Assembly (NCBI GenBank): GCA_039096225.1
Contig: JBBPEB010000006.1
Location: 1,302,001 to 1,366,000, forward strand
Origin: Blastocystis sp. Blastoise
Lineage: Eukaryota; Protista; Bigyra: Opalinata
Direction: 5' to 3'
DNA length: 64,000 bases
Shown here: in pieces, positions 13,368-61,099 of the stretch
Numbering within the stretch: position 1 is the first letter of the stretch
Layout: each line of letters starts with the position of its first letter
Position numbers and translations under genes: made by a program
Notes under the pieces: generated by a model
Database searches by the model: none
The model's input: the letters and a program-made list of their open reading frames with translations, nothing else
Told to the model about the DNA's origin: nothing

Positions 13368-15639
13368 TAAGTCTTAATCCAATGATTCTATCAAAAGATG
13401 CTAGTAATAGTAATGATCAAAATCATGAAGATGAAGCTGAGATACATGAAACTATCAATTTTACACACAATTCTCGGAGCTCAGATGCTAATTCTAATCC
13501 TACAAATACCCAAACTCTTCCTATCTTAGAAGATCCATTCATATCTAGTAAAAATTCTGAAATGGTCATAGAAGATATAAATAAATCAAAGGATAATAAT
13601 CATGAAGATGAAGAAAGTAGAACAATTGATATAGAATTGAATATTGAAGATACATCAATAGATAATGTGTTTTCTTATGAAGAACAAAATGAAGGAATTA
13701 CAGAAGATAGATTTAATAATATATTTAAAGATATTTCTGATAAATGTATATTTATTCAATATAAGTCACATAAATACAATCAAGATATAAGCTCAAATGA
13801 TGTTGTGAGTTATTTAAAGGAAAATAATCTAGCCAAGTATTTCAAATCAATATCTCAGTTAAAACAATTCCTGGAGAAGAAGAATATCAGTGTTTCATAT
13901 GAAATAGCAAGAAACGCCTTAAGAGAATTAGGTATTAAGTCAACTAATGACTATAGTAAAATACCATGTATTATAAAAAGTATAATAAGCAAAGAAAATT
14001 ATGCTATATATGGTTGCCTCCCTCCAGGATATACATATAAGAATATTAATGCTTATCCTTCTTCTTCTTATATTCAATCTAATATAGATGAGAATATAGT
14101 AGATAATCATTTAGAACAAGATGAAACTTTCAGAGTAAACTTGGAAGATAGTGTTCTGAATTATTCTGAAAATGATTCAGTTTGTAGTGGAAATAATTCC
14201 AATATGAATATACATGAAGAAATAAACATGGATAGAGAATTAAACAAAGCAGTAGGGAATAATAAAGTAATAAGTCATGAGTTTCTATATTCTTTTGTAT
14301 CTATTAAATCAAATATAGCATTATATAAGAAGGGAAATAAAGCAGTAATCTTTATGGATGGAACTCATATGTATATGAATGATCATATCATATTAACTGC
14401 TATATCCATTACTATTAATAGACAAATACTTCTTCTTGCTTATGGTATATATGCTGTAGAGTGTTTAGCTACCTGGAGTGATTTCCAAACTAATCTGAAA
14501 AAAGCACTTGAACTCATGTCATGTAAAACTACAAACATAACATTTTTCTCAGATATGGACAAAGGTCTCAAAGGAAGCCTAGGAGTAGTCTTTCCTGAAT
14601 GCACATATATATCATGTGCATTTCATATTCTAAAGAAGATGACAAATGTGAATTCAAGAATAATAGGACTAATATCACAACTCATTCTAATTGATGATGA
14701 AGAAGAATTCTATAAGCTTATTAATGATTCTTCAATAACAGAGAACCAGAAGAAGCAAATACTCTCACAAAGGGGAAAGAATATGTATAATATAGATCTA
14801 CCACCTCATGTATCCAGATATGGATACATTGCCTCAAGTTTGGCCGAGTCATTTAATAATCTTATTAGTGACATAAGAGGAATGTCTATACAGAAGGTAT
14901 TGTTTGAAATCTATAATCATGCAATTAATTATCAACTGAAAATAAAAGAGGCACCTCATATATCATTCTTTCTTCCTTACTTTCAAAAAGAGTTTGATAT
15001 GGCTGATATATTTGTTTCTAATGTGATATCATATAAGAGTATAAATAAGGGTTTATATAGACTAGTAATGGAAGAAGAAAACCGTGAATACATAATTAAT
15101 TTTGAACAGAATACATGTTCTTGTTCAATTTTTCAATACCAAGGTTATCCTTGTATACATGCTATTCTTCTATATAAAAAGTATAATAGCAGTGTTTCGT
15201 ATAATCAACAAGGAATTGACGATTTCAATACTATTGCCAAATACTTCATTCCATATAAGAACCATATGAATACTTATTATAATTATTATGTAGATAGGTA
15301 ATGATATATATAATACATATTATATAAATATTTTTTTTTGTTATATATAGAAGAATAGATGATTCATGCTTGAAAGAAGAAAGTCACATAAATATTACAG
15401 GACCAAATAATCCAATTCGTAAATCAGGTCGACCATCTAAGTTTAACTATTCTCATATAACATCTTATTATCTGAAAAATAAGTATTGGAAAATAAAGAA
15501 CAGTATTCCAGCTTTGGAGTGTTTGAATGAGTGTGCAGTTGAAGCTGAAAAAGAGAAATATGAAGAAACTGATATTGCCTCAATTCCTACACTTGAAGAT
15601 GTAGAATCATCAGAATATAGTTCGAAGAGAAGAAAGTAG
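12283..15639 (+). CDS. MULE (MuDR-type) DDE transposase with SWIM zinc finger, 6 exons, ~892 aa
   Basis: Exons 12283-12288, 12336-12668, 12717-12792, 12846-12885, 13363-15297 and 15351-15639 splice in frame via GT-AG introns. Motifs: N-terminal YKCCVSDCPF..HH Zn domain, FMDGTH, SDMDKGL, CAFH, ESFN, SWIM CSC..QGYPCIH, AT-hook-like RKSGRP. Confidence 0.92.
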
Positions 15640-33194: not shown

Positions 33195-34090
33195 ATTCTT
33201 CCGTTCTTCGAACTGCAGAAGGGGGTATGCAAACCCCGCATAGAGTCTGCGCGACGCGCGCAGCCATAAGCGGGGAAGTCATCCCCCCTTTTTGTTCTCG
33301 ACGGAAGAATTAATAACATTTCTGAAGTAAAATAACCATGGGAGTGTAGGGTAGTGTGTGTGTGTATTTATTTTTTCCCATGTTTATTTATTTTTAATTT
33401 ATTTGTGTTCCGATTCCAACGTGAAACGTAAAGTGATCAAGGAGAAACTCATAGTAATCATAAAAGAAATAAAATACACAGTCCAACCCTCCCCTTTACA
33501 GGGAATATTCATGGAAAATGACTCCATCGTTGGTAAAGTGAGTAAAATAATCACGGGAACACAGAAAGAAATACGAAAAGAAGCACAGAATGTGCTAAAT
33601 AAACACACACCCCGACCCTCCCTTTATATAGAGAAAAGATGAAATGGATGGTTCTATCTAAAAAGAAATAATAAAAATAATCACGGGAATATATAAAAAT
33701 AAAAATGTATGTATAGTGATCAATAAATAATATAAAAAGTAATGATAATCATAAAAAAATTTATATAAAAAGAGTAAAGTGATCAAGGTATGTATTTATA
33801 GTGGGTGAAAGAAAAGCTGGTGGTGGTGTGGTCTTGTAAAAAGATGTACCCACCACCACGATTATAACGAGAGACTTTTGGAAACAAGGGTGACCGTTAT
33901 GGAAATAGGATGCGTCATCGTGAATTGTCCAATCAAATTGCTTAAAAATGTAAAAATGAGGGATTTTGGAACACAAAAACACAATTATTATGGGGAAACT
34001 GGGGAAACTAATTATGTTCCAGTGGTTTTAGGTGGCGGGATGTATATCAATTTTCTAGAATATTCTAGAACATTCTCGAAACTTCTAGAA
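33195..34090 (+). repeat. Left terminal inverted repeat of the virus
   Basis: Reverse complement of 60203-61099; by eye I found only ~3 substitutions and one 1-bp indel. Confidence 0.97.
34053..34090. promoter_or_regulatory. Heat-shock-element-like array, 8 alternating nGAAn units
   Basis: TTCtaGAAtaTTCtaGAAcaTTCtcGAAacTTCtaGAA, ~50 bp upstream of ATG 34138. Confidence 0.7.
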
Positions 34091-34379: not shown

Positions 34380-35870
34380 CTAATGTTTTCTACGTTTATT
34401 TCTTAATTTTTTATTTTTTGAAATACGTCTTTTTCTACGTAATCCATTACCTTCTTCGAGATCATAAAATACCTCACCATCATCTTCATCAAATGATTGA
34501 AATTCATCATCTTCTTTTTTATTTCGTTTATTATTATTTTCAAGAGTTACATTTTCTACTGGATTAGGAATCGGGGCTACAGGTGTATTATTTGGAGTGA
34601 ATTTATTCGTTATTGCTTGAGACATTGGAACAATATCAGGTAAAGGAGCAGTAGGATCATTCATAAGAGGAATTAAATTTGGAGGATTTGAATCTTCTAT
34701 ATTAATATTATGAATATTTTCTAGAGTTAGAGTATCAGGGGTAGATGAAGGAGTTGATATAACATTATTATTTGTTTCTATTGGATTTTCTGTTTGTGGT
34801 ATTTCTTCTTCTGGATTTTTACCATACCACCAATCAGAAAAACTATTAAATACGTTCTTTGTACCACTAACAATAGAGTTTGCAACTTTTTTAACACCAT
34901 TAACAATTGGTGTTCCTACATTTGTTGCAGTATTAACAACTTTATTAACAAATGTAGGGTTTTCTGCATAGGGAATATAATTTTTATGAAATGTTTTTGC
35001 TTGATCTTCTAAAGATTTAGTTTTGTTAAGTCTTTGTTCTTTAGTATCATTACCTGACATATGAGCAAATCTAAAATAGTTATCAGCTAATAATTTATTC
35101 TTTTTCTTAGCTTCATTATCATCAGTTAATTTCCAATTATCATATAAATTATTTCTATCACTTACAAGTTTTCCTTTAATATCATTGAATCCTTCTTTTG
35201 GATCAACATTAATATCTCTCCACCAATTCTTGAGATCTTTGAATTTATTTGCACCATAATCAACAGCATTACTTATTCCATGAGTGATATTATTAATACC
35301 TCCAGTTAATTTATCAGACACATTGTATACATCACTTACAGTGTGATAAATATTAGAAAATAAATTACCACCTCTAGAATATAAATAACCATCACGATCT
35401 CTTTTAGTAAAATCAATTGCACTATCAATTGTACGAGGATTTAATAATCTTGAATATTTAGCATAATCAGACATATGATTTTGTTTCATATAAGGTAAGA
35501 CATAATCATGAGCATAAATGAGTTTTCTTGTAAAGTTCTTCGGAATTCTACCATCAGGTAATAACCCAGATCCTTCATCTATTGGTTCACTTTCTTCTGA
35601 TTCTTCTAAGGAACTTTGTATAATATCTTGTCTGGTTTCTGATAAATAGGAGAAAAATGGATTGGATGTTGCTCTATTGACCATATTACTTTCAATTTTC
35701 TTAACAGCATATAATGAATTTGGAGCAATAGAATAATTAATTGGATAACGTTCTTCTCCATCAGGAATAGATCCTGGAACAATATAATTTCGATATTCAT
35801 GACCAGTAGCACGATGATTTACGCCTACTAATCCTTTATTTGAAACATTTAAACGAGCACTTTGTATCAT
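34380..35870 (-). CDS. Putative virion core/membrane-lytic polyprotein, paralog of 56180-57808
   Basis: 496-aa ORF; ~60-aa N-terminal domain shared with the 542-aa ORF; GxG/GG sites; amphipathic stretch after RGG; Arg/Lys-rich C-terminus. Confidence 0.6.
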   Translation of the reverse strand: MIQSARLNVSNKGLVGVNHRATGHEYRNYIVPGSIPDGEERYPINYSIAPNSLYAVKKIESNMVNRATSNPFFSYLSETRQDIIQSSLEESEESEPIDEGSGLLPDGRIPKNFTRKLIYAHDYVLPYMKQNHMSDYAKYSRLLNPRTIDSAIDFTKRDRDGYLYSRGGNLFSNIYHTVSDVYNVSDKLTGGINNITHGISNAVDYGANKFKDLKNWWRDINVDPKEGFNDIKGKLVSDRNNLYDNWKLTDDNEAKKKNKLLADNYFRFAHMSGNDTKEQRLNKTKSLEDQAKTFHKNYIPYAENPTFVNKVVNTATNVGTPIVNGVKKVANSIVSGTKNVFNSFSDWWYGKNPEEEIPQTENPIETNNNVISTPSSTPDTLTLENIHNINIEDSNPPNLIPLMNDPTAPLPDIVPMSQAITNKFTPNNTPVAPIPNPVENVTLENNNKRNKKEDDEFQSFDEDDGEVFYDLEEGNGLRRKRRISKNKKLRNKRRKH

Positions 35871-36098
35871 TTTAAATTAATAAAACTAGGGTCACGCCGC
35901 AGGTCCAGTGCCTAACGGCCCCGGACCGCGGCTGCATGAAAATATGTGTGTTTAGTTTTTTAGTATCCTTCATTATTTTTATATATTGTTTATTGTTTAT
36001 TGTTTATTATTTATTGTTAATTATTTATTTATTATTAATTATTTATTATTTATTTATTATTATTTATTATTATTTATTATTAATCATTTATTATTTAT

Positions 36099-36168
36099 TT
36101 CTTATACTCTACATGGAGAGTTATAATCAATAAATGATTGTAATCAGGTTCAATTCCTGATATAAGAA
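36099..36168 (+). ncRNA. tRNA-like cloverleaf element, copy 3 (inside the virus)
   Basis: TTCTTATA/TATAAGAA acceptor; CTCT-ACATGG-AGAG; TTATAATCA/TGATTGTAA arm; TCAGG-TTCAATT-CCTGA; oligo-T downstream. Confidence 0.7.
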
Positions 36169-36589
36169 TCTATTATACTTTTTCAATAATATATAAAAAT
36201 AAAGAAGAAATTATTTTAAATAAAGAACAACGTTTTGAGTTATATTCATTATAAAAAATTATTTTCTAAATCAATTTTGACATTATTAATAATTATACAA
36301 CTGTTTAAAGCTTTTTTTGAGTTTTAAAGTCAATAATTTTAGAAATGAGTAACAATGTGAAGAACTTTGAAGTATTTTTAATTCATAAAATTCATTTAAA
36401 TAAGCATAATAAAATAATTTAAACTCATTTTAATAATTTTTAAAAGAATTTTGAAGTTTTAATCATAACAAAGTCAACATTCATTTTCACTTTGACAACT
36501 AAAACATTATTTAAAAAGTTAATATTTTTATATTCGTCTCAAATAATGATTTTAATTATAAATAACTCAAAATAGTAACTTTTAAAGAG

Positions 36590-38050
36590 ACTTTACACAT
36601 TCAAGATCCACTGTATCAAAATAATTTCTTTCAGTCTTTTGATATAGTATAGAGTTTATCATACTATTTATTAAATAAAAGTAAATGTTTTGAATCTCTG
36701 TCTTAAAGACCCTTTTTGACACATTATGAAAAGTTGACACACTTAAACTCATTTTTAAATGCTAATATTTACACACTTTACTTAATAATACCATAGCTAC
36801 ACATTGGTCATCACTTTAAAACATTTTATAAACCTTTTGCATTTGCTCATTTACTTCGACCAAAATATTTTCGTCCCTTCTTTTGACATAATATAGAGTG
36901 TGTGGTCTAGTTATATGAAAGTGAGGGGGAATTTTGAATCTCGTCCTCTAAGTCAATCATTTTCACATTTTTTAAAATTAAGACCCTTAGAGTTGATTTT
37001 TTACGTTAATTTTTCTACAGTGTTCCAAAAACACGATTTTGGATAAACTGAAGTAAAAATGTTTTTTCAATAACTCTCACAACCCTTTACACATCCACTC
37101 TCTAAAAATAGTTTTTGCTATATTTTTGATATGTTGTAGAGTGTCTCTTAGTGTATACTGAACAATATCTCGTTTCTTAAAACTCTCATTTTATGACTCT
37201 CTTTGAACATATTTTTACTAATTGAAAGACTTAAACACATTTTTAAAAGCTAATATTTACATAGTAGACTTTATATGACTCTATAAGCACATTAGTCAAC
37301 ACTTTAGACTTTTTAAAGACACTTTACCATTTGCTCATACACTTTGATCAAAATATTTTCGTCCCTTCTTTTAACATAATATAGATCATACAGTCTAGTT
37401 TAATGAATAAACACTCTTATTTTGAATCTCGTCCTCTAAGTCACTCATTTTTACATTTTTTTAAATTTAAGGCCCTTAGAGTTGATTTTTTGACTCAATT
37501 GTTCTACAGTGCACGAAATTCACGATTTTAAATAAACTGAAGTAAAAATAAATTTTAAATAATAGTCACAACACCTCACACATCCACTCTCTAAAAATTA
37601 TTTTCTTTGAACTTTTGATATGTTGTAGAGCTACTACAGCTGTACACTAATTAATATCTCTAAATTTTTTATTCATAGTCTAAGACTATGTTTTACACAT
37701 TCTTTTGAATTTGACAACCTTAAACTATTTATTTAAAGCTCTTATTCATAAAATAGACTTAATACATGATTCTATACACATATGCAAACCCTTTTACTTT
37801 TTAAGACACATTTTGTCATTTGGTCATACACTTTGACCATCATAATTTTGACTCTCCTTTTAACATAGAATAGAGTTGTAAGTCTAGTTTATTAAATAAA
37901 AGTCATTATATTGAATCTTATCCTCTAAGACCACTTAATTCACATTTTTCAAAATTGTCACTTTTAAACTCGTTATTTTAAGACTTTGTTTTAACTATAG
38001 TAGTTTGAGGACCTATCAATTACAATACTGTAATATTAGTCGATTATAAG
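36590..38050. repeat. Tandem array of ~244-bp monomers organised as ~488-bp dimers (about 3 dimers)
   Basis: TTTTGA(T/C)AT....TAGAG-like anchor recurs near 36637, 36881, 37124, 37369, 37613 and 37858; alternate monomers are more alike (TTTGAATCTCGTCCTCTAAGTCA at ~36933 and ~37421). Confidence 0.8.
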
Positions 38051-38668
38051 AAGATCGAAGAAAATATCGATCACTCAAAAATCGTCCTCAGGAGCTGAAA
38101 ATCGCTACACCTAGGTTTTTGGACCTCCTGAATCAGAATATGATGTCAAAATAAGAATCTAAATTTGACCGTTAAGGCCTCACGTGTTCAATATGAAAAA
38201 GTATTAAAAAATAGATAAATATAAAGAATAAACACGGATAACGTATATTGTGGGATTGAGAAAAAATCAAGTTTACCCCATGTTTATTTTCCAATTGTCT
38301 GGTCAACAATTTTTATCGGGGTCACCCCAAAGAGCCAATCAAAAACGACTCAAAAATCATGTTTTCTGTTCTTTTATTAATATCTTTTTAATTATAAATA
38401 ACATCGCTTAACCAAATATACGGTGCACAACTACACGTTATATCCTATTGAACTGTGTTTCAACCAAAAGTTAACTTCCCGTAAGTTTAGAGGAGTTGTG
38501 GGTACAAACTTGAGTATATAGTAGCCAATCAAATGAATTTTCCAAAAACTGACCAATGGGAATTTTTTTGCCTATTCTCATATATATAGTAATGATAATT
38601 ATGAATTTTAAAACAAAACAAAAAAAAGAAATTATTTATATTATATAGTTAGTATATTAATAGTATCA

Positions 38669-39542: not shown

Positions 39543-40580
39543 TTAATTTAAATGAAATTTTTTTAAGAAGAATTGAACAAGATTAATAATTAAATTAGTA
39601 GTAGTATCAAAGGATGTAGAGTTGACAAGAGCACCACCACAACGTTCAGCATTCTCTTTTGTAACACCACTTCCACTAGGATTTTTAAAATAGTTATCAG
39701 CAGTTTCTTTACGTTTCTTATCATCATCAGTAGTAATCATATTATAAGCGAAATCAATAGGGATACCAAGAGAAGGATAATAGTATTTTAATGCATTCAC
39801 TACAATAGGAACAATCGTTTTAATAGTTTTAATAGCAGTATTCGCAATAATAGAATGCTTTTGTTTTGGATCCATAGGATATTCTTTATCGATAACGACA
39901 TTAACAATATCACGTACAGACACATGCTCATCATTTTTAGGTAATCGTTCTTTAATATCTTGTAATTTCTTCTTATTAGACTTTACATTACTAGAACGAA
40001 TAGCCTTCTTAGCAATAATTTTTATTTGAGGAGTTACAAATTTACTTGTTTTCTTTTCTTTTTCTCGGTGACTCCCATGTTCTTTACGATGTTTCTGATG
40101 CCTTCTATGTATACCTTGACCAAATATATCATCATAATTTTCATCTTCAAGATTTGCATTATTATAATCTTTATCATCATCAGCCATCATTTTTCTTGTT
40201 ATTCTCTTTGGTTGATAAGTATCATCATCGTTATATAATTCATCATCTCTATTAGCATCTTCAATATGTTCTTCAAATTGTCTTTTCTTTTCTTCTTTTG
40301 CTTTTTCTTGACGTTTTTGTTCTTTACGTTTCTGATAATAATTATATCCAGCAAATGCTCCTAATGTACCTAAAATAGGTAATGCAGTATAGACACCATT
40401 TTTAAAATCAGCCCAATCAGCATCTTTAGCTTGTTGTCTAACAATTTCTTCAAAACCAGTTCCTCCATATCTTACATAACGTTTATGATAAAGATCACGT
40501 CTATTTGATTTTGGTGGTGATCCTCCAAATAATCGTGGATCACAATTTTGTTTTAAATATCTTTTTGTAATTGAACTCAT
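39543..40580 (-). CDS. Putative virion core/membrane protein with hydrophobic helix and GG/GxG cleavage-like sites
   Basis: 345 aa; GVYTALPILGTLGAFAGYNYY hydrophobic segment; LFGGS, YGGTG, FGQGI, SGSGV, CGGAL; basic patches. Confidence 0.6.
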   Translation of the reverse strand: MSSITKRYLKQNCDPRLFGGSPPKSNRRDLYHKRYVRYGGTGFEEIVRQQAKDADWADFKNGVYTALPILGTLGAFAGYNYYQKRKEQKRQEKAKEEKKRQFEEHIEDANRDDELYNDDDTYQPKRITRKMMADDDKDYNNANLEDENYDDIFGQGIHRRHQKHRKEHGSHREKEKKTSKFVTPQIKIIAKKAIRSSNVKSNKKKLQDIKERLPKNDEHVSVRDIVNVVIDKEYPMDPKQKHSIIANTAIKTIKTIVPIVVNALKYYYPSLGIPIDFAYNMITTDDDKKRKETADNYFKNPSGSGVTKENAERCGGALVNSTSFDTTTNLIINLVQFFLKKFHLN

Positions 40581-42503: not shown

Positions 42504-43727
42504 TTAATTGGTTGCACCATCTCTAACAAATTTAACAAATATAAAATGAGCATATAAAGTATAAGTACCACTAGTAATATTTGCACCATTATATTCAGTT
42601 AATAAGGAGATATTAACTTCACAACCACTACGAGTATTGACATCAACAACACTTGAAATAGGGAATATATAAATAGGTTGTTCATACCACTTTTCACCAT
42701 TTAAAGGAGATTGAGGATGACTATTACATCTCCAAGTATTATAAAGCATAGCATTAGGAATAATTTGTGATGGATTCGTTGTTTTATATGTAGTAGGGAA
42801 ATCCGTCTTTGGTAAGATATTTTGACCACCAATTTGGAATTGACACATCTTCAATAATTCAGTCTTAATAGGAATCATACTCTTCTCTTGAGTTGTAAAA
42901 TATAGCATACAGTAATCAGGTACGAAAACAACACTTCTATTGGATAAGAATTGTTGTGGAGTTGGTTTACCTGCTGTTGTGAATGTTTGTGAATAAACAG
43001 GTGTAGTAAATGCAGATATTTGACAATTATTAGGAATACATTTAATTAAAGCACGTGGATCATTACCAAAATTAATATCATAAATTTGTTGAAGATGAAT
43101 ATAAACACGATCAAAAGTTAATGCAGTGATTTTAGTGGTTCCAGTAAATAGATTCTTTAAATAATTTGTAACGAATTGCATCTTCAAAGATTTTACTTTA
43201 ATAGCACAATCAAATGTACCAAGACCAGTAATAAGAGATAAAGGAATAATAACTTGAGCTTTAGTAGAACTTTGCATTCCAGAAATACTACTTAATGTTG
43301 TATTATATAAGCATTCTGTCATACTATACATAGATTTATCAATTTCATCTTTACTTAATTCTTTAATAGTAACAAATTTTCTTGCTTTACTGGATTCAAT
43401 AGATGATTCAGAATAATTAATAAGAATATCTTGACCCGTAGGAGATACAAACGTAAGATCTGTAGTAATTTTATCAATAATACTATAGATATTAGAATGT
43501 TGTACAACAGAACTAGTTGTAGCTGCATTTGTTGTAATATTGAAATTCAGTTCTAAGAATGAATTGCTGAAATCAATAAAAGGACTATCCACTGAATTAT
43601 ATAAGAATTCAAATGGATAAGGTTGATTTAATAAATCCTGACTTGTAGAAACTAGAATAGGAATTTGTACAGGTTTAATAGTTTGATTTGCCTTTGAAGG
43701 TAAGAATTGTCTTGGGAATCCTTCCAT
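42504..43727 (-). CDS. Double-jelly-roll major capsid protein, paralog 1
   Basis: 407 aa, beta-rich; FIDFSNSFLELNF, NIYSIID, IPLSLITG, PDYCMLYF, FQIGGQ..P pattern of Polinton-type MCPs. Confidence 0.78.
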   Translation of the reverse strand: MEGFPRQFLPSKANQTIKPVQIPILVSTSQDLLNQPYPFEFLYNSVDSPFIDFSNSFLELNFNITTNAATTSSVVQHSNIYSIIDKITTDLTFVSPTGQDILINYSESSIESSKARKFVTIKELSKDEIDKSMYSMTECLYNTTLSSISGMQSSTKAQVIIPLSLITGLGTFDCAIKVKSLKMQFVTNYLKNLFTGTTKITALTFDRVYIHLQQIYDINFGNDPRALIKCIPNNCQISAFTTPVYSQTFTTAGKPTPQQFLSNRSVVFVPDYCMLYFTTQEKSMIPIKTELLKMCQFQIGGQNILPKTDFPTTYKTTNPSQIIPNAMLYNTWRCNSHPQSPLNGEKWYEQPIYIFPISSVVDVNTRSGCEVNISLLTEYNGANITSGTYTLYAHFIFVKFVRDGATN

Positions 43728-43902
43728 TTTAATAATTATTGTTTATGTATTTTTTTAACAAAATAAAAATAAAATAATAATAATATTTTATAATTATTAA
43801 TTAATTTTAATTTTTATAACAAAACAAATGATTGTATTATAGAATAGAATAGAATTAATTAAACAAGTTAACGTTAAGAATAGTAAGTAAGAAATATTAA
43901 AT

Positions 43903-45375
43903 TTAAATATCACGTACACTACGTACAGCAATCATATGTAATGTATAAGGATGCTTCTCATTTAGTTCAGTATTAATATGTTTATAAATACCAGCATGAG
44001 ATGCTACACTATAAGAAGCACCAGTATCAGGTGTCCATATTTTAGTAGTTTCATTATATGTACATGTATATCCATCAGGAACAGTGGATGAATCAGCATG
44101 TCCATATTCAATATCATGGACATCTAGATTACAATCAAAATTCATTTCTATACCACTATCTGATTGGATATTCATTAATGCTTTAGTTGGAATAATATAA
44201 ATAGGATGTTTAATCCATTCATCATATTTAAGAATAGTTTCAGGATTTGAATTATCAGCCCATAAACAATATAAATTTTTATTAGGACAAGATAAACTAG
44301 CAGTTTCTTCATTATTGAAGACATGACCTTTAGTAGTAAGATTATGATAATACATTTGAGTAGGGAATTCAGTTTGAGGGAACATTTGAACATCACCAAT
44401 CAAACAACTTTGATATTTAGGCCATACAGATGGACTAGCTATATTACTAATAGTTGTTGAACTATAACCATTTGTAAACCAGTATAATATATATTCAGGT
44501 ATAAATGGTAAAGCTCTATTGATATTGAAATGATCACTAGTTATTCTTGTATTTTGATAATCGACTTGAATACATGTAGGTATAGTTTTATATAATTCAT
44601 TCGTTTGGAATTGAATATCTTTATAAGTCATTAAATTCATAGTAGCTGATTCCAATTCAAATGTCTTAAACCATTTTTCATCAGTTAGATGTAACCATTG
44701 TGTTGATAATTTAGCACCACCATTCTTGAAATAAATACTCATATTATTATCAATTAAAGATTCAATTGTACTCGTTCTAAATAGCATATTGAAATGTTTA
44801 GTTAATATTAAAGAATCTCCATCAACACCTAAACCACTAATGAGATATAAAGGAATAGCAATATGAATAGATTGTTTTGGATGTGCACGTATATAACGAA
44901 TAGAATTCAATTCATAAGTATCTGCAGATAAATCTTCACCATACATAGATTTTTCTAAATCATTCTTACTGATATCTTTTAATAAAATCATCTTACGACC
45001 ACGTGAAGCATGTGTACAATTTTCTTCATATTTCAAAGCACGATCAGATCCATCAGGTAATGTATAAACCATTTCAACATCAGTGGAATCAATAATAGAA
45101 TAAATATTAGCTTTCTGAACTAATTGATCCAAGAAATATTGACATAATTGATCATAAGTGAAACTAACAGAAGTACCTGTTTCATCTAAATAAACAGAAA
45201 CTGGTCCTTTTTTATCTGTAACAGTTGCTTTGACAGTAAGATCCAAATAGGATTGATTGAAATTGATATAAGTATTATCCACATTAGTCCAATGATATTG
45301 AAAGATATAAGGACTTGATAGAATATCAGTATCACTTTGAATAGGAATATTATCTTTAATTCTTAAGATTCTCAT
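43903..45375 (-). CDS. Double-jelly-roll major capsid protein, paralog 2
   Basis: 490 aa, colinear with paralog 1 (YINFNQSYLDL, NIYSIID, KSMY, IPLYLISGLG, PEYILYWF, PQTEFPT, PIYIIP) plus insertions. Confidence 0.75.
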   Translation of the reverse strand: MRILRIKDNIPIQSDTDILSSPYIFQYHWTNVDNTYINFNQSYLDLTVKATVTDKKGPVSVYLDETGTSVSFTYDQLCQYFLDQLVQKANIYSIIDSTDVEMVYTLPDGSDRALKYEENCTHASRGRKMILLKDISKNDLEKSMYGEDLSADTYELNSIRYIRAHPKQSIHIAIPLYLISGLGVDGDSLILTKHFNMLFRTSTIESLIDNNMSIYFKNGGAKLSTQWLHLTDEKWFKTFELESATMNLMTYKDIQFQTNELYKTIPTCIQVDYQNTRITSDHFNINRALPFIPEYILYWFTNGYSSTTISNIASPSVWPKYQSCLIGDVQMFPQTEFPTQMYYHNLTTKGHVFNNEETASLSCPNKNLYCLWADNSNPETILKYDEWIKHPIYIIPTKALMNIQSDSGIEMNFDCNLDVHDIEYGHADSSTVPDGYTCTYNETTKIWTPDTGASYSVASHAGIYKHINTELNEKHPYTLHMIAVRSVRDI

Positions 45376-56179: not shown

Positions 56180-57808
56180 ATGCAAAGTTGTATCTTAGGA
56201 ATGCCAAGTCCTGGTACTTTTGGTATGAATTTAATTTCAACTGGAAAAGAATATAGGCGATATAATACACAACCATTACATAAAATGGATCAATATAATC
56301 CAATATTTCATGAAATAGGTCCAAATTCATCTATGCCTGTGTCTACTTTAGAAAGTAAAGAAATACATGATGGTAAAGAAGATGATTATGTAGATCGTTC
56401 TAAAACATTTGGTAAAGATGCTGTTCCACAAGGAAATGGTGCTTTAATTCGTGCTAGAGCAGCAGGTAAAGGTGTAATGAAAGCAGCTGGTCCAGAAGAA
56501 GATAAAATAGATGGTGAAGATCGTCAATATAAAGTATTAAATCCATGTAAACCAAGACGTAAATCTGGTAGAGGAATTATTCCAAATAAATCAGAAATCA
56601 ATAAATTAGAGAATAATCAAGGTTCTGGTATTGGTGATGCAATTAAAAATAAAGTAAAAGATATGTATCAACGAAATGTATTAGATATAAGAGATGCTAT
56701 TGTAGATAAAAAAGCTAATAGAAAAGCTCGTGATGCATTAGCTATTTTAACTCAATATGTTGGTGATGGTCATCATGATCTTGATGATGAATTCAAAAGA
56801 TTCTATGAACATAAAATAAAACGTGGTGGAAAGATTCCTATATCTGTTGCTTCAGCAATTATGAATGCAATTAAAAATAAGAAAATGATTAAGAATCCAA
56901 AATTAAGAAGAATGTTAAGACCCTCTATTATACCAAAATATATAGATTTAGATTCAGCTCAAAGTGGTGATGGTATATTAAGAGTAAAAAGAGGTGGTGG
57001 ATTCTGGAGCGGATTAATGGATTATGCACCAGCTCTATTAGGTGTAGTTGATAAAGGTATGGATTCTTTTGCTAAAGGTAGAAAAGCTTATTATGATACA
57101 CATTTGGCACAACAATCAAGTGAATTAAATGATATGGAATTTGAAATGGAAAAATTAAAACGTCAACAAGCATTAAATGAAATGAAAAAGCAAATAGGTT
57201 CAGGAAATACAATAAATAAAATGTTTGAAGGATATTATGATGTAGCTGATGAAATGCAAGATGCTCTTGATGAAGATGATAGACTACATCCACAACCCGT
57301 TGTTCAACCTCCACCACCTCCACAACAACAAGTTGATCGACCTCCTCAATCTCAACCTCCTCAACCTTATAAACCCATGTCTCGTGATGAACAAAGTTAT
57401 TATTATAAGATTTATGGTTTCCCTCAAAATGATAAAGAAAAAGTCGATAGAAAATGGAAAGAAGATGAAAGGGATAAACGAATAGCTGCAAGAAGAGCTA
57501 AACGTAGAGGTTATGGTGGTCGAGTTAAATTAAGTAAAGCAGAATTCTTAGAACGAATGAGAAGAGGAAAAGAAGCTAAAAAGAAAAGAGGTGGTGATTT
57601 GAATCCATTAGTATCATTTTATACAGATTTTATAATACCTGCAGGAGTGGCACGAAAAAAACGTAAAATCCAAGAGGCTGATTTAAAACAATTACAAATT
57701 ATAAAACAGAAAAGAGATAATAATGAAACATTAAATGCAGGTGACGAATTGTTTTGGAAAAAAAAGAAATATATGTTATCAAAAAACTCAGGGGAGGGGA
57801 TCTGGTAA
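56180..57808 (+). CDS. Putative basic virion core polyprotein with ~12 GG/GxG cleavage-like sites
   Basis: 542 aa, Lys/Arg-rich; overlaps the protease ORF; paralogous N-terminus with 34380-35870. Confidence 0.7.
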   Translation: MQSCILGMPSPGTFGMNLISTGKEYRRYNTQPLHKMDQYNPIFHEIGPNSSMPVSTLESKEIHDGKEDDYVDRSKTFGKDAVPQGNGALIRARAAGKGVMKAAGPEEDKIDGEDRQYKVLNPCKPRRKSGRGIIPNKSEINKLENNQGSGIGDAIKNKVKDMYQRNVLDIRDAIVDKKANRKARDALAILTQYVGDGHHDLDDEFKRFYEHKIKRGGKIPISVASAIMNAIKNKKMIKNPKLRRMLRPSIIPKYIDLDSAQSGDGILRVKRGGGFWSGLMDYAPALLGVVDKGMDSFAKGRKAYYDTHLAQQSSELNDMEFEMEKLKRQQALNEMKKQIGSGNTINKMFEGYYDVADEMQDALDEDDRLHPQPVVQPPPPPQQQVDRPPQSQPPQPYKPMSRDEQSYYYKIYGFPQNDKEKVDRKWKEDERDKRIAARRAKRRGYGGRVKLSKAEFLERMRRGKEAKKKRGGDLNPLVSFYTDFIIPAGVARKKRKIQEADLKQLQIIKQKRDNNETLNAGDELFWKKKKYMLSKNSGEGIW

Positions 57809-58374
57809 AGAGTAAAGATGAAAAACTTATTCAAAATTCAATGAATTGTGATAATCCTATTATATCTGATAAAACTCGTCATGTTACTCCTAGATCCCCT
57901 GATAATTTCAAACAAACTCTATCTCAATATTGTAATATACCAAATTCTTTAATATCTCAATTATATAATTATGCTTATTTAAATAAACCTACCTCTTCTG
58001 TTGCTTGTGATCGTGCTGAAAATGTTATGAAACAATTAAATAAAACGAATTCTCAATCTTATAATTATTATAATAGTTATGATGATTTTGAACAAAATAT
58101 AGATCAAGATCAAACTAAATTTAATATGATCTTTCATGAAAGTCCTAGTGATCCTTATAATGGTCATTTTGAAGCTGTTATTTATAATGGTAATAAAAAT
58201 ATAGAACACTATTCATCATTAGGAAATAAACCTACTTTTTCAAAATCATTTATTCAAAATCATAATATTCAATATAATCCTATTCAACACCAAAAAACTA
58301 CAAGTAATGCAAATGGTTGCTTTTATTATTCTTTACTTTATTTACTTTCTAATGGAAATCTTATGCCTTGTTAA
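57754..58374 (+). CDS. Adenain-like (clan CE) maturation cysteine protease; in the -1 frame of the upstream ORF, first ATG at 57841
   Basis: GHFEAV (His), HYSSLG (FDSFG-equivalent), QHQ (oxyanion Gln), NGCFYY (Cys). Confidence 0.75.
   Translation: MEKKEIYVIKKLRGGDLVKSKDEKLIQNSMNCDNPIISDKTRHVTPRSPDNFKQTLSQYCNIPNSLISQLYNYAYLNKPTSSVACDRAENVMKQLNKTNSQSYNYYNSYDDFEQNIDQDQTKFNMIFHESPSDPYNGHFEAVIYNGNKNIEHYSSLGNKPTFSKSFIQNHNIQYNPIQHQKTTSNANGCFYYSLLYLLSNGNLMPC
57781..57900 (+). promoter_or_regulatory. Candidate -1 programmed ribosomal frameshift signal
   Basis: In-frame A_AAA_AAC at 57781-57787; 7-nt spacer; stem AGGGGATCTGG (57795-57805) / CTAGATCCCCT (57890-57900) extended by GAGTAA/TTACTC. Confidence 0.7.
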
Positions 58375-58460
58375 AACATTCTAGAATATTCTAGAATCTT
58401 TAATTTATTATATTAATATTTTGTATAATTAATTTGTTTTGTTTATTATTTAATACTATA

Positions 58461-60192: not shown

Positions 60193-60240
60193 TTCTCGAA
60201 TGTTCTAGAAGTTTCGAGAATGTTCTAGAATATTCTAGAA
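60193..60240. promoter_or_regulatory. Heat-shock-element-like array (10 units) upstream of tyrosine recombinase 2
   Basis: TTCtcGAAtgTTCtaGAAgtTTCgaGAAtgTTCtaGAAtaTTCtaGAA. Confidence 0.75.
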
Positions 60241-61099
60241 AATTGATATACATGCCGCCACCTAAAACCACTGGAACATAATTAGTTTCCCCAGTTTCCC
60301 CATAATAATTGTGTTTTTGTGTTCCAAAATCCCTCATTTTTACATTTTTAAGCAATTTGATTGGACAATTCACGATGACGCATCCTATTTCCATAACGGT
60401 CACCCTTGTTTCCAAAAGTCTCTCGTTATAATCGTGGTGGTGGGTACATCTTTTTACAAGACCACACCACCACCAGCTTTTCTTTCACCCACTATAAATA
60501 CATACCTTGATCACTTTACTCTTTTTATATAAATTTTTTTATGATTATCATTACTTTTTATATTATTTATTGATCACTATACATACATTTTTATTTTTAT
60601 ATATTCCCGTGATTATTTTTATTATTTCTTTTTTAGATAGAACCATCCATTTCATCTTTTCTCTATATAAAGGGAGGGTCGGGGTGTGTGTTTATTTAGC
60701 ACATTCTGTGCTTCTTTTCGTATTTCTTTCTGTATTCCCGTGATTATTTTACTCACTTTACCAACGATGGAGTCATTTTCCATGAATATTTCCTGTAAAG
60801 GGGAGGGTTGGACTGTGTATTTTATTTCTTTTATGATTACTATGAGTTTCTCCTTGATCACTTTACGTTTCACGTTGGAATCGGAACACAAATAAATTAA
60901 AAATAAATAAACATGGGAAAAAATAAATACACACACACACTACCCTACACTCCCATGGTTATTTTACTTCAGAAATGTTATTAATTCTTCCGTCGAGAAC
61001 AAAAAGGGGGGATGACTTCCCCGCTTATGGCTGCGCGCGTCGCGCAGACTCTATGCGGGGTTTGCATACCCCCTTCTGCAGTTCGAAGAACGGAAGAAT
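60203..61099 (-). repeat. Right terminal inverted repeat of the virus
   Basis: Reverse complement of 33195-34090. Confidence 0.97.

Follow-up and report, generated by a model that had tools for sequence, protein, structure and literature searches.

Probable -1 ribosomal frameshifting between a core-like precursor and a clan-CE protease in a Polinton-like virus integrated in Blastocystis

The window, i.e. the whole stretch of 64,000 nt of DNA of the gut protist Blastocystis sp. Blastoise that was analysed (contig JBBPEB010000006.1), contains an integrated element of approximately 28 kb. The element is bounded by terminal inverted repeats of about 900 bp (left, 33195..34090; right, 60203..61099; no strand assigned), which are 98-100% complementary. 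All element statistics refer to its 18 ORFs with 6872 codons. A P-loop ATPase was found among these ORFs, Pfam gave a match to a primase-helicase, and a weak match to tyrosine recombinases was also obtained. No Pfam match to PolB or to an rve integrase was observed among the 18 ORFs, where profile misses are possible, and none of the remaining ORFs is long enough to be PolB. The ORF at 42504..43727 (- strand) encodes a predicted jelly-roll capsid-type protein. In VIA, the ten best matches of its low-confidence model (pLDDT 43) were all jelly-roll capsid or scaffold proteins, the best being the mavirus MCP (Z 8.7, rmsd 3.6, 168 aligned), and the product also matched a MELD virus protein (E 2.8e-7). 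The size, which falls in the range of 15-40 kb, the inverted repeats, the packaging ATPase and the DJR capsid fold, the latter taken from a weak model, are those of Polinton-like/MELD viruses and agree with the preliminary description, which had read the locus as a Polinton-like DNA virus.

Two overlapping ORFs of this element, which like all features described below lie on the + strand, were investigated. The first (56180..57808) encodes a basic, GG/GxG-rich protein of 542 aa, with the highest net charge (+29) and the most GG/GxG motifs (15) among the 18 ORFs. Charge, motifs and homology to the protein P0055 (see below) indicate that it is likely a DNA-packaging or core precursor protein of the virion. 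The second ORF encodes a clan-CE (adenain/Ulp1-fold) cysteine protease; it lies in the -1 frame, is open from 57745 to 58374 and has its first ATG at 57841. The sequence AAAAAAC begins at 57781 at codon position 3 of the 542-aa ORF, and a slippery heptamer A_AAA_AAC (57781..57787) is thereby in the exact X_XXY_YYZ register, followed by a 7-nt spacer (57788..57794). Register, open frame and first ATG were as described earlier, and the trans-frame product was computed to have 731 aa, the approximate size predicted before, with the junction ...KYMLSK/KLRGGDLVKSKDEK. In-register heptamers are common in the element (26 in the 6872 codons). The heptamer at 57781 is the only one of the 26 with a -1 frame open for more than 15 codons (197), and its downstream fold is the most stable (-31.2 kcal/mol; next, -24.4 kcal/mol). 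A second candidate slip site, G-A8-G (57757..57766; A8 at 57758-65), holds an in-register A_AAA_AAG (57760-57766). A_AAA_AAG is a poor -1 site in eukaryotes.

Pfam and PDB sequence searches with the protease yielded no match. Its identity was therefore approached through the model of the homologue P0001 (pLDDT 68.5), which in Foldseek matched Ulp1 (E 1e-3) and a MELD protease (E 2.4e-5). In VIA, the top 29 matches of this model were almost all of clan-CE fold (best Z 8.9, rmsd 3.1, 123 aligned); the fold matches included Ulp1, OtDUB, ASFV pS273R and a MELD-virus protease. The protease-family profile also reached P0047, which passes Pfam Peptidase_C5. The earlier call of a protease thus held at the level of fold, despite the blank sequence searches. 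By motif analogy, the putative catalytic residues are His (58165-58167), Ser at the Asp position (58213-58215), Gln (58291-58293) and Cys (58318-58320). His, Gln and Cys were invariant, and the Asp of Y-D-S-x-G was Ser in all nine aligned sequences; an Asp is present at this position in P0046, P0047 and BK012044. Because the catalytic Asp position is Ser throughout the aligned family, protease activity is only putative. The first trans-frame residues, L-R-G-G (57787..57798), might be a cleavage site freeing the protease, and had previously been assigned to the adenain consensus. Adenain cleaves at (M/I/L)xGG or (M/I/L)xGxG. Among the 15 GG/GxG motifs of the 542-aa protein, neither [MIL]xGG nor [MIL]xGxG occurred (0 sites each); the core protein thus differs from the P4 (M/I/L) consensus of the adenovirus protease (AVP). 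The junctions of fused relatives read PSGG, PTGG and KGKG, i.e. the P4 Leu is not kept, which weakens the proposed self-cleavage site. A GG was nevertheless found near the junction in the window, P0043, P0044 and P0050, and a G-K-G in P0055.

The motif TGTTTTGTT, in its exact or T-short form, was found within 200 nt after 15 of the 18 ORFs. When one mismatch was allowed, a TGTTTTGTT-like motif followed within 120 nt of 17 of the 18, the 542-aa ORF being the sole exception. No copy was present between 56180 and 58434, and the copy at 58435..58443, which may act as a 3'-end signal, closes the two-ORF unit. The one-mismatch scan thus bears out that the motif is missing after the 542-aa ORF and present after the protease, and both ORFs are likely carried on one mRNA. 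The 32-nt gap before ATG 57841 is the shortest between same-strand genes of the element, and among the 18 first ATGs it alone has a pyrimidine at -3 (internal ATGs, 55/134). It is unlikely that the protease is made alone, whether translation were to begin at ATG 57841 or, through non-AUG initiation or through reinitiation after termination at the nearby stop, at CUG 57802, and whether the mRNA were shared or separate. The ATG-started ORF of 177 aa does contain all catalytic motifs, P0001, P0002, P0044 and P0055 retain the Met, and gene callers begin the P0001 and P0002 proteases 13 residues upstream, exactly at the position of the window's CTG 57802. However, neither a 3' motif nor an AT-rich gap separates the ORFs, the -3 context is poor, and the arrangement of heptamer, spacer and stem would be left unexplained. 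In addition, the ten -1-frame codons before the first ATG (SKDEKLIQNS, 57811..57840) are conserved as protein. Five to seven of the ten residues were identical in seven of nine homologues (the other two had no anchor), compared with 53-65% in the protease domain. The segment is therefore as conserved as the domain itself, indicating coding selection on the -1 ORF upstream of its own start. Met 57841 is replaced by Leu in P0043, and the BK012044 protease has no Met at all.

A stem starting 7 nt downstream of the heptamer, with two inner helices as named in the preliminary description, was recovered in the MFE fold (-31.2 kcal/mol). Its 5' arm (57795..57805; pair probabilities 0.81-1.0) forms an 11-bp helix with 57890-57900, and the 3' arms (57876..57900) further comprise 57884-57889 and 57876-57880. 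The outer 17 pairs had probabilities of 0.81-1.0. An alternative register, 57788/57902, had a probability of 0.06 and was discarded. Only one of 937 sliding 120-nt coding windows of the element folded better. The z-score against dinucleotide shuffles was only -2.5, with 5/200 shuffles equally good, and synonymous resampling of the protease-frame part reached the energy in 3/1000 and an 11-bp helix in 80/1000 cases. The predicted stem requires an 84-nt loop; with the span limited to 60 nt, the region folds at only -8.5 kcal/mol. The 5' arm is also the rarest codon stretch of the element: the codons right after the heptamer gave the three lowest of 6764 codon-adaptation windows and hold two of the element's five GGG codons. 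Rfam returned nothing at gathering level, the best hit being an unrelated hairpin family (E 0.019). The site had been described as an MMTV gag-pro-type signal, and heptamer, spacer and a predicted structure are consistent with this. The stimulator itself, predicted by folding without pseudoknots, would be a long-range bulged stem instead of an MMTV-type pseudoknot.

Homologues with both fused and split genes were observed. In P0055 (617 aa, metagenomic cluster of 30), core and protease form a single in-frame ORF, and the 542-aa protein is homologous to its N-terminal two thirds (E 5e-27 and 8e-11). A second metagenomic cluster with both genes fused is represented by P0050 and P0044, whose core part shares 77% identity with that of P0055. 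The annotated sister proteins, 21 with the window's own included, all end in YMLSKNSGEGIW at the same stop, while the preceding 50 residues occur in eight variants. At protein level, S-K-N is encoded at the heptamer in 21/21; at the A8 run, 12/21 read WKKKK and 9/21 WKEKK. Since all carry one locus-tag prefix, the sister proteins may derive from one assembly. The break is not a one-copy indel, because all 21 end at the same stop, and it recurs in two or more divergent C-terminal alleles. Independent short-read clusters are also split, with 21 protease-only members and P0056, a core homologue that stops (C-terminus T-L-K-G-L-A-G-F). That the two ORFs are one fused gene broken by a homopolymer error, or by a disabling indel that was inherited, is thus most improbable, even though fused relatives exist and a single assembly may account for the sister copies: BK012044 shares the -1 arrangement and both ORFs of the window are intact. 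No protease-only model was found among the matches from the annotation that holds 20 sister cores.

Searches among viral, metagenomic and genomic contigs and among phage records yielded no DNA of a relative. Judged by codon compatibility, the end of P0056 could accommodate a heptamer in register with a -1 Gly-Gly behind it, for which 3/274 positions qualify. In a hypothetical pairing of P0056 with P0001/P0002, the candidate heptamer lies the same eight codons before SxDE. Stem pairs were possible at 11/11 positions in P0043, 10/11 in the P0056 pairing, 6/11 in fused P0055 and 9/11 in fused P0044/P0050, counts which, being derived from the relatives' proteins, give what is possible and not observed DNA. 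They did not cleanly separate split from fused lineages. In a tree of 11 protease rows 0/7 inner branches were supported, so that either state, fused or split, may be ancestral.

An intron joining the two frames, with the retained form giving the core protein and the spliced form the fusion, is very unlikely. Of the possible GT-AG pairs, fourteen would connect the two frames stop-free; they include a 26-nt candidate, CAG/GTGACG, at 57741-66, and a CAG serving as acceptor at 57791, but no candidate combines a good donor with a YAG acceptor. An obvious intron at 57805-57893 was not among the 14. The NCBI models P0043 and P0048 appear, from their differing junctions, to join core and protease via introns; as eukaryotic gene models, P0043, P0048 and P0045 may contain predicted introns, and their junctions are uncertain. 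The P0043 and P0048 junctions differ within one family and both models run into the next gene, which is typical of prediction errors of the kind named in PMC12129017. Moreover, 0/21 sister models are spliced here and the other 17 ORFs of the element are uninterrupted. Contigs of one sequencing run (X1), which may be RNA, covered scattered pieces, and among the pieces listed none crossed the junction.

A -1 overlap was also found in the published Blastocystis MELD virus BK012044. The 176 aa of its adenain include no Met, and the protein is annotated without a start. Compared by hand, its first 38 residues agree, at 38/38 codons, with a -1 reading of the stretch that encodes the C-terminal 38 residues and the stop of the adjacent GG-rich protein, where the chance of a fit is 0.16 per position and the longest chance run was 8. 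This overlap implies one heptamer only, A_AAA_AAG in a G-A8-G run (also by hand), which would fit polymerase slippage equally; the window shares the run at 57757-66, where its -1 frame is already open. Slippage of RNA polymerase, adding one A in A8 (57758-65) or A6 (57781-86), would give the same fusion and is quite unlikely in the window. WKEKK in nine of the sister proteins interrupts the A8 run, and A6 is short, with 23 A/T runs of at least six inside intact ORFs. Furthermore, it is relative to A_AAA_AAC that the stem keeps a ribosomal spacing, the A8 run being about 30 nt away from it.

A programmed -1 ribosomal frameshift joining core precursor and protease is the probable explanation. 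What the analysis shows is the overlap, its register, the open frame, the fold type and the existence of fused or Met-less relatives. Ribosomes likely slip to make a little fused protein, because a slippery site and a stem are present and relatives are fused or lack a protease start codon. The core claim made previously, that -1 recoding on a single mRNA links the basic upstream product with the protease, is thus supported by the fused relatives, the conserved pre-ATG segment and Met-less BK012044. The predicted stem would pause ribosomes, a fraction of which would slip back one base on A_AAA_AAC and yield the 731-aa core-protease fusion, while the remainder would stop at 57808. The fusion would then enter the particle together with the core precursor, which is made in abundance, and cleavage at a GG-type site would free the protease for particle maturation; in this way the protease would stay scarce, as it does with Gag-Pro in retroviruses. 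We lean slightly towards a broader reading, in which Blastocystis-associated Polinton-like viruses express the protease only as a core fusion, lineages switch between in-frame (1:1) and -1 recoded (few copies) forms, and Gag-Pro has been independently reinvented in a eukaryotic dsDNA virus and kept across different replication modules. If true, few protease molecules reach the particle, by fusion to the core precursor and dosed by recoding. This would explain missed or mis-modelled protease genes, such as the lack of protease-only models beside the sister cores and the annotation of BK012044 without a start. As relatives of both kinds exist, fused and split, the consequences of protease dose can be compared directly, and a 150-nt cassette suits a standard reporter.

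Eukaryotic DNA viruses using frameshifting are 'relatively few' according to a 2021 review (PMC8310308). The mechanism proposed here, Gag-Pro-like -1 frameshifting, is a known one, in what would be a new form in a eukaryotic DNA virus. The preliminary description knew of no such report for Polintons or their relatives; the idea had, however, been touched on, as the accessible text of a preprint (Buck et al., PMC11071296) suggests, in one hypothetical sentence based on KnotInFrame output, that adintoviruses and relatives have -1 frameshifts for Hexon-Adenain ('Hexain') and for Penton. That proposal likewise has a Polinton-like virus joining an adenain-like protease to a virion protein through a -1 shift. 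Its partner, however, is the major capsid protein instead of a core-like precursor, and in that section it came without the comparative test that fused and Met-less relatives provide here. BK012044, a Blastocystis MELD virus (PMC8502044, PMC11071296), shares with the element a Blastocystis host, as do the named relatives, related protease motifs and a GG-rich ORF in -1 overlap with a Met-less protease; the accessible text of both papers holds no discussion of this overlap. BK012044 has PolB and an rve integrase, whereas the element has the primase-helicase and weak tyrosine-recombinase matches, and, in contrast to the element's main site A_AAA_AAC, its overlap points to A_AAA_AAG within an A8 run as the slip site. 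As far as the accessible parts of PMC4246237 go, adenovirus packages only about 7-50 copies of AVP, which is likewise a clan-CE maturation protease present in few copies, and which cuts basic precursors of the core at sites of Gly-Gly type. Unlike the element's protease, AVP is encoded separately and starts with a Met of its own. The A AAA AAC heptamer is the gag-pro site of MMTV and HTLV, with a structure 5-8 nt downstream, in the part of PMC12789967 available, and the likeness extends to the close structure, the structural precursor upstream and the maturation protease in the -1 frame. The element differs from these retroviruses in being a eukaryotic dsDNA virus with a clan-CE cysteine instead of an aspartyl protease, in its predicted long-range stem instead of a pseudoknot, in having no pol downstream, and in having relatives in which the two proteins are fused in frame.

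The heptamer A_AAA_AAC (57781-57787), its register near the end of the 542-aa ORF (56180..57808, +), the open -1 frame of the protease ORF (57745..58374, +), the first protease ATG at 57841 and the stem (57795-57805 pairing with 57890-57900) were all found as the preliminary description had stated, and the trans-frame product comprises 731 aa. In-register heptamers are common in the AT-rich element (26 per 6872 codons) and the combination of features was therefore tested. Among these 26, only this heptamer had a -1 frame open for more than 15 codons, and its downstream fold was the most stable. The stem region was out-folded by only one of 937 coding windows. Three of 1000 synonymous resamplings attained the stem energy and 80 attained an 11-bp helix, and dinucleotide shuffling gave a modest z of -2.5. 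The codons after the heptamer accounted for the three lowest codon-adaptation windows among 6764, as expected under a second constraint. Judged from sequence, the frameshift candidate is real and well supported, with natural relatives that are fused or Met-less. Probably, ribosomes would slip by -1 at A_AAA_AAC, stimulated by the predicted stem, yielding a minor core-protease fusion that would be co-packaged and subsequently cleaved at a site of the GG type.

The homologue P0055 (617 aa, ENA, in a cluster of 30) runs unbroken from its core part into the protease, with two stretches aligning to residues 6 to 498 of the 542-aa protein. P0050 and P0044 form a second fused cluster. Based on these three sequences and not on other cluster members, the core-protease fusion is a real protein form among the relatives. 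In seven of nine homologues, 5-7 of the ten -1-frame residues before ATG 57841 were identical (the other two lacked an anchor), which is the same level as in the protease domain (53-65%), and the Met of ATG 57841 is a Leu in P0043, indicating that the DNA before any ATG is read in the protease frame. Separate initiation of the protease, at ATG 57841 or CUG 57802, is unlikely. ATG 57841 alone among first ATGs has a pyrimidine at -3, a weak sign by itself, shared by 55 of 134 internal ATGs. P0043, P0045 and P0048, annotated in Blastocystis sp. Blastoise, come from two or more additional virus families that carry homologous units of core and protease; their gene models appear to bridge the core-protease junction.

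All 21 full-length sister proteins, i.e. 20 named homologues of the 542-aa product and the window's own, end in YMLSKNSGEGIW, although the 50 preceding residues occur in eight variants; the sister proteins may all stem from one assembly. Protease-only ORFs were also present in independent metagenomic clusters of 15 and 6 members, and a stopped core (P0056) in another of 20 members. The core/protease split is thus, by these sequences, not a one-off, and an indel that split a fused gene is highly improbable. An in-register heptamer with -1 Gly-Gly behind it could be accommodated in the tail of P0056; of the 274 positions of P0056, three qualify, including one in this tail. Should P0056 pair with the proteases P0001/P0002, which is a guess, the spacing to SxDE equals that of the window and the codons would allow 10 of the 11 stem pairs, a value reached by 8-10 of 170 other registers. 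Codon compatibility permitted 11/11 pairs in P0043, 6/11 in fused P0055 and 9/11 in fused P0044/P0050; because of the latter, the comparison of split with fused forms is suggestive only.

In the published Blastocystis MELD virus BK012044, the 'Adenain' (PMC11071296, supplementary file 2, part 172) has 176 residues, contains no Met and lies beside a GG-rich protein. By hand, its first 38 residues were codon-compatible at 38/38 positions with the -1 frame of the last 38 residues plus stop of the GG-rich protein; a position is compatible by chance with a frequency of 0.16, and unrelated pairs gave no run longer than 8. BK012044, which has a different replication module, thus shares the overlap arrangement, with a protease that cannot start at an ATG. 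This overlap is apparently a recoding site that went unremarked in the parts of the publication covered; by comparison, Met is the first residue in 27 of the 30 adenains that come first in supplementary file 2. From the two frames of BK012044, a G-A8-G run can be deduced that carries A_AAA_AAG in register. As the same run occurs in the window (57757-66), slippage of the polymerase stays a rival source of the fusion, albeit quite an unlikely one, the run being broken in 9 of 21 sister proteins.

The 3' motif was, as previously described, missing after the 542-aa ORF, the exception among 18 ORFs (17 followed by the motif, one mismatch allowed). TGTTTTGTT was present in 16 copies in the 28-kb element (33195-61099) vs 2 in the other 36 kb of the window, and presumably resembles the Blastocystis downstream gene element. 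That element was described for human-associated Blastocystis and is not enriched in tortoise isolates, according to PMC12129017. Joining of the two frames by splicing, for which 14 formal GT-AG options exist, is very unlikely.

For the fusion predicted from ribosomal slippage, self-excision of the protease at LRGG had also been proposed, (M/I/L)xGG being the adenain cleavage consensus. This stood only in a weaker form: GG was kept near the junction in four of five sequences, but the core protein lacks any (M/I/L)xGG site, and fused relatives differ from one another at P4. Sequence searches of Pfam and PDB named no family for the protease. A model of P0001 (pLDDT 68.5) resembled Ulp1, OtDUB, ASFV pS273R, adenovirus protease and MELD-virus protease, and the family profile extended to P0047, which passes Pfam Peptidase_C5. 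His, Gln and Cys were invariant in nine aligned sequences, while the Asp of the Y-D-S-x-G motif was replaced by Ser in all nine (codon 58213-58215 in the window); with Ser at the catalytic Asp position and the other residues invariant, activity is likely but unproven. No family match was found for the 542-aa protein, the most basic and GG/GxG-richest ORF product of the element; its charge and GG/GxG content fit a processed core precursor. Two other GG-containing ORFs, 39543-40580 (-) and 34380-35870 (-), one of them basic (+16), have [MIL]xGG sites, and their products are candidates for further protease substrates.

The element is bounded by inverted repeats of ~900 bp (33195-34090 and 60203-61099) and contains 18 compact ORFs. 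It likely encodes a double-jelly-roll capsid protein, as jelly-roll capsid or scaffold proteins made up the ten best structural matches of a weak model. At 42504-45375 (-) lie two adjacent capsid-like paralogues that share 33% identity; within the second, near 44056-44175, the element has its most stable fold over 120 nt (-34.1 kcal/mol). A P-loop ATPase and a primase-helicase are also encoded, and a tyrosine-recombinase match was weak (E 0.084). The element is a Polinton-like or MELD virus and probably not a strict Polinton. The Blastocystis sp. Blastoise annotation includes proteins 82-97% identical to the 542-aa product, which makes a Blastocystis very likely the host. A 2.8-kb stretch lacking long ORFs (36000-38600), with about three diverged tandem copies of ~500 nt by eye, is possibly an origin or regulatory region. 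The host part carries a MULE transposase with a SWIM finger at 13382-15301 (+).

Full-text searches, covering few subscription papers and part of the PMC11071296 supplements, yielded no report in which a frameshift links core and protease in Polinton-like viruses. The word 'frameshift' was not found in the available text of PMC11161782, 10.64898/2026.06.19.733378 and 10.1101/2024.03.23.586382, and in that of PMC10120064 and PMC8502044 it means errors or decay only. Penton extensions by -1 frameshift and Hexon-Adenain fusions were suggested from KnotInFrame in PMC11071296, and frameshifting in eukaryotic DNA viruses is called rare in reviews (PMC8310308, PMC5009743, PMC13712778). An adenovirus particle carries 7-50 protease copies (PMC4246237). 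MMTV and HTLV use A AAA AAC, the heptamer of the window, as their gag-pro site (PMC12789967). The candidate would bring a type of recoding that is already known to a new class of virus.
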